Counted from the first letter of the whole stretch, positions 12,850 to 60,476 are shown. The stretch: DNA of 63,470 nt, filler included, from Sluysia triapertura (GCA_046118255.1; 5 parts of 5 records of this genome joined end to end with filler, not necessarily neighbours in it), one strand, 5' to 3'. Numbers and translations are program-made. The notes: a model not told the origin generated them from the letters alone.

Positions 12850-14040
12850 TATTGCCCAATTAGTGCATAGAAAATAGGTTAAATGTTAGAGAATTTAAAA
12901 TATACATAAGAGAAAGTGATATGAAATGTCTGAAGTATAATAATATACTTATAATTAAATATTGCTAGAGCAAAAATTATGAACAATAAAATTTTTATAA
13001 TCATTTTGAAAACGAAGAATGTCTTTGAGTTCCAAAGACCTTTGTAGGGTATTAAGACCCTTATGAAAGCTTAAGGAGGGTTTGAAAAGATGTTTTGAAG
13101 TATTAAGATATATTTGAACTTCTTGCGATTACTTGAGATCTTGTTGAGATTGTGATGGCTTTCGAGACCTTAATAAACTTTTGAGATCTTAACTTTGTAA
13201 AGTGTCTGGAACCTTTAAAATGTTCGATATTATATCATGGTTAATAATATTAAAGATAAACTGGATAAGTTAATAATTAAAGTAAAACAGTAGACAAAGG
13301 AATCAGAGTGGTGAAGGTGAAAACATGTAGAGCATCCTGAGTATCTTATAAACTTTATAACCATGATAAACTTAAACTTAAAATAAGTTAAAATAAATAA
13401 TTAGTTAATTAAATTCTTAATTATCTTAACTTAATTAAAAAAATTGTTTGTGCGAATAGCATTTGAATGAAGAATGCCATGTTAAAATTGTAATTGTGTA
13501 TGTATGTGTTTTAAAGATCTATATGAAAATAATGTTTGACCAAGTTTATGCAAGGAAAGCCTCTATATTGAACAAAGTCGGATTTTAATTAATTTTAATT
13601 AAAAAGTGTTGAATTTTTCATATTTAATCGGTTATAACTTTCTAACATTCATTAATAATTGTTCAATTGAGTTAAAAAAGCGTTTTAATTACTCAAAAAG
13701 GTTTCAAAATTTTTTGTCAGATTGATACGGTTTTATTTAATTAAGAAACCAATAAAAATTATAAATTAAAATTCTTTATAAGAATTATGGTTCTATTTAA
13801 TAAAAGAACCGCAGCAAAGTATAGTAAGCGTATCTAAATCTGAAATCTTAAGAAAATAAACGAAATTAAGTTACTAAGATAAACTTTCAAGAAATCAAGA
13901 CAATATATTAAGAAAACCTCCAGTAGTTATAAATTATCTTTCTAAGAAATCCAACGGCTATCCCTAACAGGTAAGACTAGATACGTTGGTGGACTCATTC
14001 TTTTATTCATAAGACTAAGTTAAGAAAAACCTTAGCAAAT
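12850..14040 (+). mobile_element. LTR-like element carrying the structured motif near its right end
   Basis: Starts TATTGCCCAA (homologous to 5469 leftwards) and ends AAAAACCTTAGCAAAT like the other motif-bearing ends. No TSD found. Confidence 0.55.
13951..13997 (-). ncRNA. Structured motif copy (slightly degenerate)
   Basis: Minus strand: TGAGTCC A CCAACG TA TCTAG TCTTA CCTGTTA GGG ATAG C CGTTGG. Confidence 0.6.
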
Positions 14041-14448
14041 TAAAATTTTCAAATACAACAGAAAACAAAAAAATTTCTTAGAAGATCCATGCAATTAGTA
14101 ATTTCTGTCATTTTATTTTAATTTTTATTTAATATAATATTTAAAATATATAGATAGTTATTAAGTGATATAATTCAATGATTTTAATATATTTTGAAAA
14201 CCCCATTATTATTTGAAATATATAATATTTATATATTTAGGAATTACTGGAAACCATAGATTAATAGTATTAATTTTTGATTTCCAGTTATTGTTTAAGA
14301 TTCGCAATATACATTTTTGGAATTACTTTTTTATTTCGATTTGTAATAGCCATATAAAGCAGCTAAATATATTTAAGTTTTAGTAGGTTATAAGTGCCGA
14401 AGGTACCACTTAGTATAATTGAAAATAATAATCTAAATTTTTTAGAAG

Positions 14449-14520
14449 GGCCTGATAGCTCAATGGTAGAGCATTGAACTGCGCAGCGAGAGGTCCCGGG
14501 TTTGATTCCCGGTCAGTCCA
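14449..14520 (+). pseudogene. tRNA-Ala-derived sequence (copy 2)
   Basis: Homologous to 8232-8303, including about 60 bp of upstream and about 25 bp of downstream flank. Confidence 0.7.
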
Positions 14521-15188
14521 TTTTATGAAGTCTAACAGATCAAATAATTACATTTATATTGATGTATAATTTGTGTGACATTATTCTTTGGTAATTTAGT
14601 TATTCGTATTAATTCAGTGATGTAGTTTGGATTGGTGAAGAATAATGGTAGATGTAAGGATCAAATCTAAAGATAACAGAATAGGTTCAACATTATTAAA
14701 GAAATCAGATAAGGCAATATGATGAAATGCAATTGTAAGATAAGTATATAAAATATTTAAATCGAAATAATATAATGAGATACGAAGAAACAACCCTGAA
14801 AAAGTTTTACTTGTAAAAGTACTAAATTACATTTGTTAATTAACCTAATCAAAATTTAATTAATTTTATGACTCAATAGAAATGTTTGCTCATGATTTAA
14901 AGATGTTAAATTTAGTGTATAATGTTGAGTTTTATTATTAGTTTCAATGATGAAGTATTGCGAAGCATTTTCAACGTAGATAACGTAAAATCTAGTTATT
15001 TTAATTAATTTTGTAAGTTAAAATTAAAGATTAAATATGTTCTAACGTCTAAGTATTAATAAAGTATATATCAAATTGATGCTTATAAATATGTTATTCA
15101 ACTTGACGTGCGACGTACGGTTGATGCACAACGTATTAATGCAAAATACTCCTGTGAGAAATGGATTTATTATTTTATAAATTTTATT

Positions 15189-56924: not shown

Positions 56925-56926
<2 letters not shown>

Positions 56927-58730
56927 TTGCTGGGATTTTTCTCTATAATTAAAAAATTAATTACTTTTCTTCTTATGTTGGGTTCACTTGTAAGATACGA
57001 CTTATACGACTAATATGTGAGGCGTACTTACAAGATTTCTTTAAAGTAAAATAATTAAATATTTGCAAATTAATTTCTTCTCAACTTAATATATTAACAA
57101 CTAAGATTACTAATTAGTCGGATGGTCAATATCTATCTAATTCTTAACTAAATAGTATCCTGTGGAAAATAGAATCTACACTAAAGTTTAGTGATGAAAA
57201 ACGTGCGTTAAATTGAACACCAAATTTGCACAAAAGAGGTATTAAAACCAGACAATTAATTATAATACAAGTAACAACGTTATATAGAGTTTTGAGGCTC
57301 TACTCAATAGTTAATAAAGTTTATTATGTAAGTTATTGCCGACTTAAAGCCAGTAAAAAATATTCTTTAATTTAGAAATTATCGCTGACATAAGGCCAGT
57401 GTAAACATGTTTGATATTAAGTATAGATTTTGTGGCTCCTCTTAATGATGAGTCAAAAACTTAAATAATAAACTTACCGACTAAATTAAACTAAAATATT
57501 TGTCTTTATTGTTGAAACTGTGTGACTTTTATAATCGATCAAACCAAATAGAAATAACAATCGTATTGATAGCTTTATAAAATTATGTTAAATTGCAAAG
57601 TAACCAATTTTCCTTATGCAATAATCGACTTATATAACTGTGAATTTGTCCAAAAATTAAAATCAATTTTGTTCTGAGTCTTAGTGAAATTAGAAACCAT
57701 ATTAGAATGTTCTTTTTCCTTTGTAAATTAAAATAATTAAATTTTATTGATATTTTTTTAAATAATAATTTTTTATAATTTTTAATAAATAATTATACAT
57801 AAAATATATAAAATAAAAAATAAAGTGAAAATAATATGTATAATAATAGTAATAATAATAATAGTAAAACTATAATGATGAGAATGATGGTTATGATAAT
57901 GGTAATAGAATTAAAGATTATGCATTCAGATAAATATGGCGAGATGCCCACTATGACAAAAGAAACTATAACACCGAGCAATAAAGTACAATCAGGAATC
58001 TGATAAAAAAGAAAATAGGACTAAGTATTAATAAGATAAGACCAAACAATAATAAAAGAGACAGCAATAAAATAAAGACCATGCTGATATATAAATGACA
58101 AATGGTCATTAATTATTACTTATTAAAGTAGTAAGAAAAAAGTATGAAACCGAAAGGGTTCAATGAATGGAAACATTAGTCATTTGTTAAAGGTAATAAA
58201 GGTAATATTCGATTGGTTAATATGAAACAAAGTATTTTTGGTTTTGTTATTTTAGTTACTTGGATTTGTAATGTCAAATCAAAATTCCTTACGTGGAATA
58301 TAAAATACGACCTAAAATATTTAATATTTTCAGTTTAATTTAAATTATTAATTGATCTAAAATATATATATCGAATTAAAATGATAAAATTTTAAACTTT
58401 TCTTTTGTTATCTTTGTTCATTATTTTAGTTTTTACATTTGTCTATAAAATATAAAATATTAATATTAATTACCCTTGAATTTAATTTGAATTGAAATAG
58501 TGAAATATCATTACAAATCTAATTATTAAATTATTAAGTTTGTTAATTTAAATTTGATTTGAAATATATAATAAATTATTAAATTTAACGGATCATTTCT
58601 AAGGTTAATGAACCCTATATTACGATATATTTAATTTGTTTTATTAATCTAGATTATATACATGGTTTAAATTTAAAATATAAATTATTTTTCTAAGTAG
58701 ATTTTTTTGCGAAAAGAAATCCCAGCATAT
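56925..58730. mobile_element. ~1.8 kb LTR-like element with an 11-bp terminal inverted repeat and the structured motif
   Basis: TGCTGGGATTT (56928-56938) / AAATCCCAGCA (58717-58727). Starts TGTTGC. No TSD seen. Confidence 0.5.
56979..57034 (+). ncRNA. Structured motif copy
   Basis: TGGGTTC A CTTGTAA GA TACG ACTTA TACGACTAATATGTGA GG CGTA C TTACAAG. Confidence 0.65.
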
Positions 58731-59479
58731 GCTCATTAGTGAAAATATATTTTTAAAATATATTAATAAATCAATATGTTAATTATAAAACTGAAAGTTT
58801 ATTTTCTAATTCCATTAAGTTAAAATCTAATACTTTTAATATTTTAATTTTAATATTTACAATTTTAATAAATAACAAATGGTTTTATAATACTGTAATA
58901 AAAACATATGTGAGTATTTTTAATTAATATGAAAAATGTGCTGTTTGTTACTTTAAGTTAAATTAGACTCATTGTCCTTAAATTTATTATTTGCTAAATA
59001 TTAATAATTCTTAATCAACTTAAAAATTCTTCGCAAATTTCAAACAAATAAAACTTAAGCTTTTAATTCTCTTAAAATTATCCAGATTTAACTCAATACC
59101 TTGATTAATGACATTAAAACTTTAATATCGACAGTTTCTATCTGAAAAATCTAAATTCTTTTTTTAAAGTCTAAATTATATAATAAAGAATTACAGAAAC
59201 TAGATAGGCTAAAATCTATTTCCAAAAACTTATCAAATTTTATTAAAACAAAAATATTCTAGATAAAAATAAAAATACAGATAAAACAGTTTATTTTATA
59301 AAACACGATTTTATATAATATTTTAACTTTAAGATATTACATTCACTTGACCAATTGTTAAGAAAATTTTCACAATTTTTAAGTCGACACTATTAAGTTG
59401 ACACTCAATAGTTAGATACCAAACGTCTAATCGCTAAAATCTCAAATATAAATCTAATTTGTTGTCATTGTTAAAACAA

Positions 59480-60476
59480 AGTCTGTAAAAAAACTAAAAC
59501 TAACAACTGGACAACTAAAAGTAAAAATCAGTTATTGGTTGTGTTAATATTAACAATTAATGATTAATTTTGTGTATTAACAATTAATATTTTGATTATT
59601 TTTATTTGGATTAAAATCATTTATTTTTATTCTTGATCGAAAAAATAATTGGACTAAATATTTTAATATTTCAACTAACGTAAGTATTTTATAAAATATT
59701 ATTAAATAAAATAATTATAAAATAAATATCATTTTTCATTGTTTTACCGAAGTCCAAGGCCAACACAAAAATACATATAAAAACCACATACTCAAACGTA
59801 AAAAATCACACTTAAAAAACACAACGAAAGTATCAAAATCAAAAATTTTATAAATATTTTACTAGTTGCAAGAGGGCATTTAATTAATCAAGAAATTTAT
59901 TTACACCCAGGATTTTGTTGTTTTTAAGATAATTTACGTTAGTTCATTATATTAAGATTTTGGAAACTTTTAAATAGTTTCCACGTAAAATATATTTTAA
60001 ATTTCTCTATTTAAAATTAACTTGAGATAATAGTTAATTATCGTAAATTCTTATTTGTATCTATTGAATTATTGAAATTTGATCGTGAATATATGATTAT
60101 TTAAAAGAGAAGTTTTTATTTTTTTTAATAACAGCAATTTCTATAGTTTGAAAATCATAAAATCGCCCATGCATTAAAGCTTTATCAGAATTTAATTCTG
60201 ATCTCGTAAGATCAATTGATGCAAATCCTTTTCATAGGATTATCGTCAACTATTGTAATAATATAAAATTTAACCAAATTTTTATTTTTATTCAGCCAGT
60301 AAATACTTTATAGTTAAGTTAACGAGCATTGAGATATTTTTAATGTCCAAATAAAACTTTTTCAAATGCAAAAATTCAACGGCTAGCCCTAACCGGTAAG
60401 CCTAGTACGTTGGTGGACTCACGTATAAGTTTTACTTTATTCTGTTAGCGTAAGGTTAGAAAAAACCACAGCAATA
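59480..60476 (+). mobile_element. LTR-like element homologous to 16250-17483 (left boundary uncertain)
   Basis: Collinear conserved blocks. Ends AAAAAACCACAGCAATA. Abuts and truncates the glycoprotein ORF. Confidence 0.65.
60377..60421 (-). ncRNA. Structured motif copy
   Basis: Minus strand: TGAGTCC A CCAACG TA CTAG GCTTA CCGGTTAG GG CTAG C CGTTG. Confidence 0.7.

Follow-up and report, generated by a model that had tools for sequence, protein, structure and literature searches.

A strand-specific structured motif marks one end of a highly repeated, non-coding element in Sluysia triapertura (GCA_046118255.1), and we tentatively favour, with somewhat less than even confidence, reading it as a single-stranded DNA signal of a non-autonomous, probably rolling-circle (Helitron2/Helentron-like) element. 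The motif was studied in a window of 63,470 nucleotides (the whole stretch analysed here, GC content 25.6%), which consists of five separate pieces with N-linkers between them. An initial annotation of this window had reported six copies and one relic, all fitting the pattern TGAGTCC-N-P1-TA-P2-RCTTA-loop-GG-P2′-C-P1′, in which TGAGTCC is a leader and P1 and P2 are stems. The claimed places and strands are all borne out, as follows (H0 is a terminal hairpin and depth is summed contig depth, both described below):

12217..12301, + strand: relic end, with terminal TG at 12220, well-kept H0 at 12220-12252 and decayed motif at 12267-12301
13949..13997, − strand: motif copy 1, CCAACG subfamily, slightly decayed (descriptor)
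15289..15331, − strand: motif copy 2, P1′ missing; terminal TG at 15378, H0 weak (depth 163,410 in bin 15289-15378)
17379..17423, − strand: motif copy 3, TTTACAG subfamily, decayed (depth 502,302 in bin 17359-17448)
26714..26758, + strand: motif copy 4, best-kept copy of the TTTACAG subfamily; the contig stops 11 nt further on
56979..57034, + strand: motif copy 5, CTTGTAA subfamily, with a long third helix; TG at 56928 adjoins an AAT microsatellite, H0 weak
60376..60421, − strand: motif copy 6, CCAACG subfamily (descriptor, depth)

A strict descriptor of the motif found four loci in the window against a mean of 0.275 in 40 shuffles, and a scored descriptor gave 27, 25, 24, 24 and 23 for copies 4, 6, 3, 5 and 1, respectively, against a maximum of 21.6 in 12 shuffles. 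Because both results exceed those from shuffled sequence, the motif is genuine and chance is excluded. The sample comprises six copies in three subfamilies plus the relic, and to say that all of them fit the pattern overstates the case: four of the six copies deviate in at least one linker, and copy 2, truncated by a contig end, lacks P1′. In copy 1, T replaces R, 1 nt is inserted and a P2 pair is broken; copy 3 has an altered leader and GC in place of GG; copy 5 has an altered leader and GA in place of TA; and the terminal pair of copy 6 is C.A. The relic aligns with copy 4 but is missed by both the descriptor and a covariance model. Measured from the triplet preceding the terminal TG, the reported spacing of 43-60 nt is correct; from TG to leader, the seven ends give 40, 47, 57, 55, 51, 52 and 47 nt.

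The stems were said to swap letters while staying paired, and many two-sided changes between subfamilies bear this out. Pairing-preserving two-sided changes in P1 number four between copies 4 and 5, three between copies 4 and 6 and five between copies 5 and 6; in P2 there are three (copy 4 versus 6), two (2 versus 6) and two (2 versus 4). Broken stem pairs are few and confined to single decayed copies. Beyond P2 lies a third helix, in which CTTA pairs with the 3′ side of the loop, fully in copies 1, 5 and 6 and partially in copies 2, 3 and 4, with an R.G opposition standing between P2 and this helix.

Complementarity between leader and loop had also been proposed. The leader does pair with G-RCTTA (p ~0.008; 41 of 5,000 permuted leaders reached 6 bp), while the proposed CC:GG pair is unneeded: the leader's sixth base has its partner in the final, invariant G of P2, and of the two loop Gs the first closes the third helix formed with CTTA, while the second stands opposite R. 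This leader helix reaches 6 bp in at least five of six copies on the motif strand, versus 2 bp on the opposite strand, and its 36 positions comprise 25 Watson-Crick pairs, 9 G.U pairs and 2 mismatches. Ahead of the leader, one further pair is G-C in copies 2 and 6 and A-T in copy 4. Other signals point to the same strand. In the copy-6 subfamily, 42% of depth carries a P2 variant that leaves a G.T pair on the motif strand but C.A on its complement, its partner showing no change at ≥5%, and the G.T pairs of the third helix and of a hairpin at the far end of the repeat form on the motif strand.

Folding with DNA energies gives the motif strand the greater stability in all five end modules (motif versus other strand, −14.2/−11.2, −8.4/−7.7, −11.0/−8.2, −12.5/−9.6 and −8.3/−7.4 kcal/mol) and in the far-end hairpin (−6.5 versus −5.7 kcal/mol); under RNA energies it is favoured in four of the five modules. 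Module z-scores run from −0.56 to −4.74 for DNA and from +0.41 to −2.52 for RNA, the DNA value being the better in 5/5, and in copy 6 the covarying fold has the lowest DNA energy, whereas the RNA minimum is another fold. On these modelled energies, the folded molecule leans towards single-stranded DNA, short of proof. The proposal of a selected, strand-specific single-stranded fold thus finds support in depth, covariation, strand bias and energies.

The termini carry a second hairpin, H0, the 5′ arm of which begins with the terminal TG. It is clear in copies 1, 3 and 4 and in the relic, partial in copy 6 and weak in copies 2 and 5; motif and H0 together form a two-hairpin module of ~100 nt at one repeat end. 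A strict end pattern occurs five times in the window versus 0.07 in shuffles, and two of these ends (58727 and 13816) lack the motif. Ends beyond those given with the copies above are:

13790..13819, − strand: motif-less end with TG at 13816, arranged in tandem with the copy-1 end and bearing a 6-bp hairpin (end pattern)
14014..14040, − strand: copy-1 terminus, TG at 14037, with H0
17440..17483, − strand: copy-3 terminus, TG at 17480, with H0; contigs from other loci cease matching at 17480 and 17487
26656..26697, + strand: copy-4 terminus, TG at 26659, with H0 (DNA z −3.45 for the 102-nt module)
58712..58730, − strand: motif-less end, TG at 58727, a perfect 11-bp inverted copy of the copy-5 end 1800 bp off
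60444..60476, − strand: copy-6 terminus, TG at 60473, with partial H0, interrupting an env-like frame

Motif-type ends face each other ~1.8 kb apart in two pairs (12220/14037 and 56928/58727). The third place before the terminal TG is T at 7/11 ends, TA sits directly outside most ends and the two letters outside the end are nearly fixed.

Several further observations concern these ends. At 58721-58736 lies a palindromic junction, with two TG-type ends around a single TA. One contig fuses motif-end sequence to the 15917 edge, which hints at end-to-start tandems elsewhere. A looser end of the same type at 17850-17891 (−), 410 bp past the copy-3 end, bears a different strong hairpin (RNA z −2.95), and depth between the two is 110-2467. 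The outer flanks of the relic end (12180-12219) and of the 58727 end (58728-58768) have ~33 AT-rich bases and a TATA palindrome in common; this likeness (p 0.003, uncorrected, 66 pairs) was discounted, as an unrelated pair scored equally. An end-like match at 34633 is an exon edge of the HMG-box gene and was discarded as chance. The env-like frame that ends at the copy-6 terminus (60456-60944, −) is broken and matches Monjiviricetes_fusion at E 2e-04, below the cut-off. It contains a signal-like stretch that shares its frame with codons further upstream, and it resembles the in-frame env of Burro elements (PMC6431247); a search with it gave no longer relatives.

One whole repeat unit could be delimited, with its far end and a promoter-like module that includes a heat shock element (HSE) array:

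15914..17480, strand unassigned: whole non-coding unit of 1567 bp, TG...CA (depth edge, contig starting at 15914, repeat scan)
15910..15943, − strand: far-end hairpin, 7 + 7 bp, with two G.T pairs formed on the motif strand
16134..16226, + strand: promoter-like module with palindromes, HSE array at 16162-16181, TATA at 16208 and TCAGT at 16222 (predicted from sequence alone)

The edges at 15914 and 17480 were set by depth and single contigs, depth just outside the far end being 61.6; position 15588 was rejected as the right end of the copy-3 unit, since depth there is single-copy. The unit has an imperfect 11-bp terminal inverted repeat and TTA on both sides (ATTA if the final A lies outside). 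This direct repeat may be chance, because the left TTA lies in the outer arm of the far-end hairpin. That hairpin has an RNA z of −5.39 and a DNA z of −3.36 and was equalled in stability by none of 200 shuffles. The unit contains no open frame of ≥100 codons and gave no Pfam match in six frames read through stop codons (read-through covered 15914-17900; the remaining units were examined as open frames). The putative promoter, ~310 bp from the other end of the unit, is directed towards the motif end; the favoured motif strand is therefore antisense to it, as had been claimed, and this holds for the single unit delimited in full. The copy-6 body is homologous to the copy-3 unit over ~900 bp at 60%, and the repeats are 1.6-1.8 kb long and non-coding. 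Promoter-bearing end and hairpin end are thus now joined within one unit.

Abundance was gauged from contigs of one public sequencing run aligned at 80% likeness; this run is possibly the source of the window and so not independent of it. It was the only run found to contain this DNA, and no RNA run did. Copy 6 drew 2,947 contigs, with depth of 102,730-392,200 across 60370-60419 versus 103.8 past 60480, and the loose ends of these contigs differ from each other on either side of the motif. The region 15289-17960 drew 7,436 contigs: depth reached 502,302 in the copy-3 bin (812,145 at one position), 163,410 in the copy-2 bin and 54,645-99,321 in the bins of the promoter module (16009-16278), with 265-2791 in the stretches between these motif and promoter peaks and 13-30 in the unique stretch 15379-15828. 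The motif therefore stands ~20,000- to 60,000-fold above single-copy depth, a rough reading only, as summed contig depth is not copy number; its density in the window, ~one per 10 kb, is consistent with high depth. Since depth peaks on the motif alone, the motif is the best-preserved part of a large, old repeat family. At five deviant positions of copy 3, including one in an H0 pair, the pattern letter accounts for 94-100% of depth (among the variants listed), so that both hairpins are family features.

The repeat has a hairpin at either end, both on one strand; its stems are rewritten whereas its unpaired letters are fixed, and it lacks coding sequence. Together these features suggest a non-autonomous element with a single-stranded stage, recognised by its shape. 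Such logic has precedents: integron attC sites and IS200/IS605 ends are strand-specific imperfect DNA hairpins with a conserved extrahelical base, in which shape outlasts stem letters. These systems are bacterial and the likeness is one of logic only; pairing of the IS200/IS605 kind, guide to cleavage site, is not evident between leader and terminus. Terminal hairpins of IS200/605 are also mentioned in the Helitron2 literature (PMC3627910).

Among eukaryotic elements, the closest likeness is to Helitron2/Helentron (HLE2) and its non-autonomous HINE/DINE-1 elements, with which the repeat shares its non-coding nature, great abundance, length of ~2 kb, T beside the end and tandem extra ends. The motif end resembles the Helitron2 5′ end (PMC3627910, PMC4067079, PMC13085455), where an inverted repeat 0-2 bp from the terminus (0-4 nt in the definition) pairs with downstream bases. 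Compensatory changes, a T at the 5′ end and a hairpin at each end are described as well (PMC3627910, PMC4067079). Correspondingly, H0 begins at the terminal TG and the family letters keep its pairing. Non-autonomous Helitron-like elements average ~2 kb, and tandem extra ends are known for one HLE2 family (PMC11417382), as a tandem end occurs here. The unit can be read as lying between two T, HLE2 insertion being defined as at T|T or T|C without duplication. Helitron1 (HLE1) features, namely 5′ TC, 3′ CTRR ~11 bp after a hairpin and an A|T target (PMC4067079), were not found.

Under the rolling-circle reading, the unit would be mobile, the folded molecule would be DNA and a transposase supplied in trans would read the module folded on one DNA strand. 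An HUH-type enzyme might nick at the T preceding the terminus and displace the motif strand 5′ end first. H0 would fold first; while only the 5′ half of the motif is freed, the leader would pair with G-RCTTA, and this pairing would give way to the full bulged hairpin upon release of the 3′ half. Such a two-state switch, which we infer from sequence, would let the module report the extent of strand displacement, for loading, pausing or second-strand priming.

Several points weigh against this reading. The Helitron2 3′ end has an inverted repeat 20-30 bp (20-60 bp in the definition) from the end with a hairpin directly after it, and no such end was found in the whole unit, in which the inverted copy is the last 11 bp, inside the hairpin. 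The unit can also be read as flanked on both sides by TTA/ATTA, which fits a 3-bp duplication or a recombinase core; it differs from HLE2 in this 3-4 bp direct repeat and in the absence of a TT target at the motif end, the letter preceding the T never being T at the seven motif ends, unlike the Helentron TT target. No RepHel or other helper was found in the window, nor any Pfam match in the unit, and HELIANO lists HLE1 only for Schmidtea mediterranea (PMC11417382 supplement). The HLE2 passages available describe no bulged three-helix hairpin with a pairing leader. H0 is weak or partial in copies 2, 5 and 6, its single-copy z-scores are mostly modest and a whole unit has been defined only once. 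As to strand and molecule, two-sided changes are lacking from the six core pairs of the leader helix, which counts against the evidence for the motif strand; one invariant A/C opposition would read as G.T on the opposite strand; an invariant G.T in a 6-bp leader helix fits RNA better than DNA; and the improved DNA z-scores may come partly from the behaviour of shuffles without G.U pairing. Because the far end is unlike a Helitron2 3′ end and HELIANO lists only HLE1, we do not place the element in HLE2, the group whose ends it would, by analogy, most resemble in function.

The other readings are less probable. The foremost, which we consider improbable, is that the repeats derive, as non-autonomous or solo copies, from a tyrosine-recombinase retrotransposon of the DIRS order, the module folding in antisense single-stranded complementary DNA (cDNA). 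DIRS-1 cDNA is single-stranded and antisense (PMC7192593), matching a favoured strand antisense to the promoter; the annotation's idea of a fold in minus-strand cDNA survives only in altered form, as a single-stranded DNA intermediate. A triplet of the NTT or ATT type at both ends (PMC3266345) agrees with an ATT...ATT reading of the whole unit, weakly so in AT-rich DNA. Long inverted terminal repeats are absent, however, the ends being self-similar over only ~11 bp versus 66-316 bp in DIRS1-like elements (PMC3266345), which also differ in having coding capacity; the unit contains no internal copy of the end-to-end junction, the counterpart of the internal complementary region of DIRS1-like elements (scores 22 and 20 versus a shuffle mean of 24.6); and the 310 bp that precede the promoter could be restored from RNA only with a second copy. 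Identical split direct repeats, including the A1-B1-A2-B2 arrangement of Ngaro/PAT elements (PMC9210276), were not found, as the 58727 and 60473 ends cannot be aligned past the terminus; a solo A-B remnant of Ngaro/PAT may still be represented.

Slightly less probable is that the units are solo long terminal repeats (LTRs) of a Gypsy/Burro-like retrotransposon, the module being a U5 signal in RNA or in minus strong-stop DNA. TG...CA ends, a short imperfect inverted repeat, a promoter directed inwards ~310 bp from one end and the non-coding sequence all suit an LTR, and giant Gypsy elements with env-like regions are plentiful in planarians (PMC6431247), an env-like fragment adjoining copy 6. 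Against this, the TG...CA ends lack a 4-6 bp duplication (3 bp only, or 4 bp with GC-type ends, at one unit), the two letters outside the end are nearly fixed and, in two instances, like ends face one another across 1.8 kb. No primer-binding site or polypurine tract adjoins the end at any of 8/8 ends, which show no TGG in the first outside bases and no purine run >5; solo LTRs are likewise without them. Troyka elements, which make 3-bp duplications, share the 3-bp flanking repeat but have CG...CG ends and LTRs of 100-400 bp (PMC12440569), in contrast to the TG...CA ends and 1.57 kb of the unit. The LTR-like nature that had been ascribed to the carriers is therefore unconfirmed, given the missing 4-6 bp duplication and the bare flanks.

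Carrying the same low probability is a broader proposal, that a hitherto undescribed class of animal element, neither Helitron, DIRS nor LTR, is represented here in non-autonomous form; it would be mobile as a single strand, have hairpins at both ends and use a two-state switch to time nicking, priming or self-cleavage.

We think it unlikely that the repeat is a cut-and-paste or Crypton-type DNA element in which the module is a duplex or cruciform protein site. Such an element is suggested by TA outside most ends, the 58721-58736 junction with its one TA and the perfect 11-bp inverted repeat of the copy-5 unit. Cryptons have 4-6 bp terminal direct repeats, no inverted ones and a tyrosine recombinase gene (PMC3212892); one unit here shows an ATTA repeat, and no such gene was found in the window. 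A duplex site does not predict rewritten stems together with fixed unpaired letters and a G.T bias to one strand.

No likelier is a new small self-cleaving ribozyme or RNA switch on the motif strand, which the annotation had put forward as its lead candidate. Size (~50 nt, within the range expected from PMC10085705), invariant linkers, a possible second pairing and the mobile-element setting are all shared with small self-cleaving ribozymes; invariant unpaired letters stand beside covarying stems, with U-A in the P1/P2 loop, and the second pairing is significant and includes an invariant G.U. Yet Rfam gave no match, CUGAnGA, which in hammerheads of all permutations accompanies a GAAA block beside the stems (PMC10085705), is absent from both strands of 7/7 modules and, as had been stated, no conserved hepatitis delta virus (HDV), twister or pistol core was seen, nor a hairpin ribozyme core, in comparisons using short core motifs. 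The leader helix is incompatible with the third helix, a link of 2-3 nt being probably too short, by established pseudoknot geometry, to cross 10-12 bp. Single-copy RNA z-scores on the motif strand are weak (−0.6 to −1.1 in 4/5), and the only promoter found faces the opposite direction. Candidate motifs beside hammerheads failed to cleave in 10/10 cases (PMC10085705). With no known core, and with RNA energies missing the covarying fold of copy 6 that DNA energies recover, the ribozyme loses its place as lead candidate.

Least probable is a promoter-strand fold that presents or hides a 5′ splice site: GTAAG does stand at the loop site of the opposite strand in 4/6 copies, as reported, its G is invariant at the 5% level in the copy-6 subfamily and the invariant A/C opposition becomes G.U beside a bulged A on that strand, but the best-paired copies 4 and 5 read ATAAG, the leader helix explains the same letters and most strand signals favour the other strand.

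Searches for relatives returned little. Rfam gave nothing above noise for the whole window or for three copies alone (E up to 5 or 10), and so no match to a known family. A covariance model was built from the six copies (on an imperfect alignment) and finds those six alone below E 0.3. In IMG/VR, at least 120 stretches matched a loose pattern, and among those listed none had both stems paired, the best falling short by 2 pairs; specific motif patterns had no matches in viral contigs, metagenome contigs or GTDB genomes. The literature searched, with Repbase Reports, the Burro genome paper and the Troyka supplement outside its scope, held no description of the motif. Structured mobile-element ends are an already known kind; no earlier description was found of a terminal hairpin followed by a bulged hairpin of three helices whose leader pairs, Repbase Reports again lying outside scope. 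The initial annotation is here extended by a terminal hairpin, a test of the leader pairing, a profile of depth and one complete unit.

Elsewhere the window contains exons of teneurin, UBE2O, a RING protein and an HMG-box protein. Taken with the AAT microsatellites and an env-like fragment of the sort known from planarian Burro elements (PMC6431247), these genes suggest an AT-rich animal host, probably a planarian flatworm; a search with the HMG-box protein returned five unnamed proteins. Two tRNA-like sequences, 8223-8320 and 14449-14537 (Rfam tRNA E 4.6e-05 and 1.4e-06, without an ARAGORN call), sit in short units with TGTTAGA-type inverted ends. An intron-free frame of 407 codons (19152-20375, −) had no Pfam match and a weak Atlas lead to DEDDh exonucleases (0.89, 143 shared features), and a RING-finger frame like BMI1/PCGF (10983-11576, −) seemingly reads through short stretches resembling retained introns. 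Near the UBE2O exons lies a candidate C/D-box small nucleolar RNA like snR75 (43227-43306, −; E 0.15, below the gathering score). A second repeat family, of 78-89% identity, occurs at 1-233, 2126-2343, 8562-8994 and 35923-36397, and one copy has a 138-codon frame that we take to resemble the end of a LINE reverse transcriptase.

How Helitron2/Helentron ends are recognised is assumed in the published account (PMC3627910), and the primer of DIRS cDNA is given as unknown (PMC7192593). The module described here is short enough for direct probing of how such ends are recognised. If the rolling-circle reading is true, a highly repeated sequence of S. triapertura bears a single-strand signal more elaborate than the plain hairpins of Helitron-like elements, and its thousands of natural variants would permit a precise covariation map.

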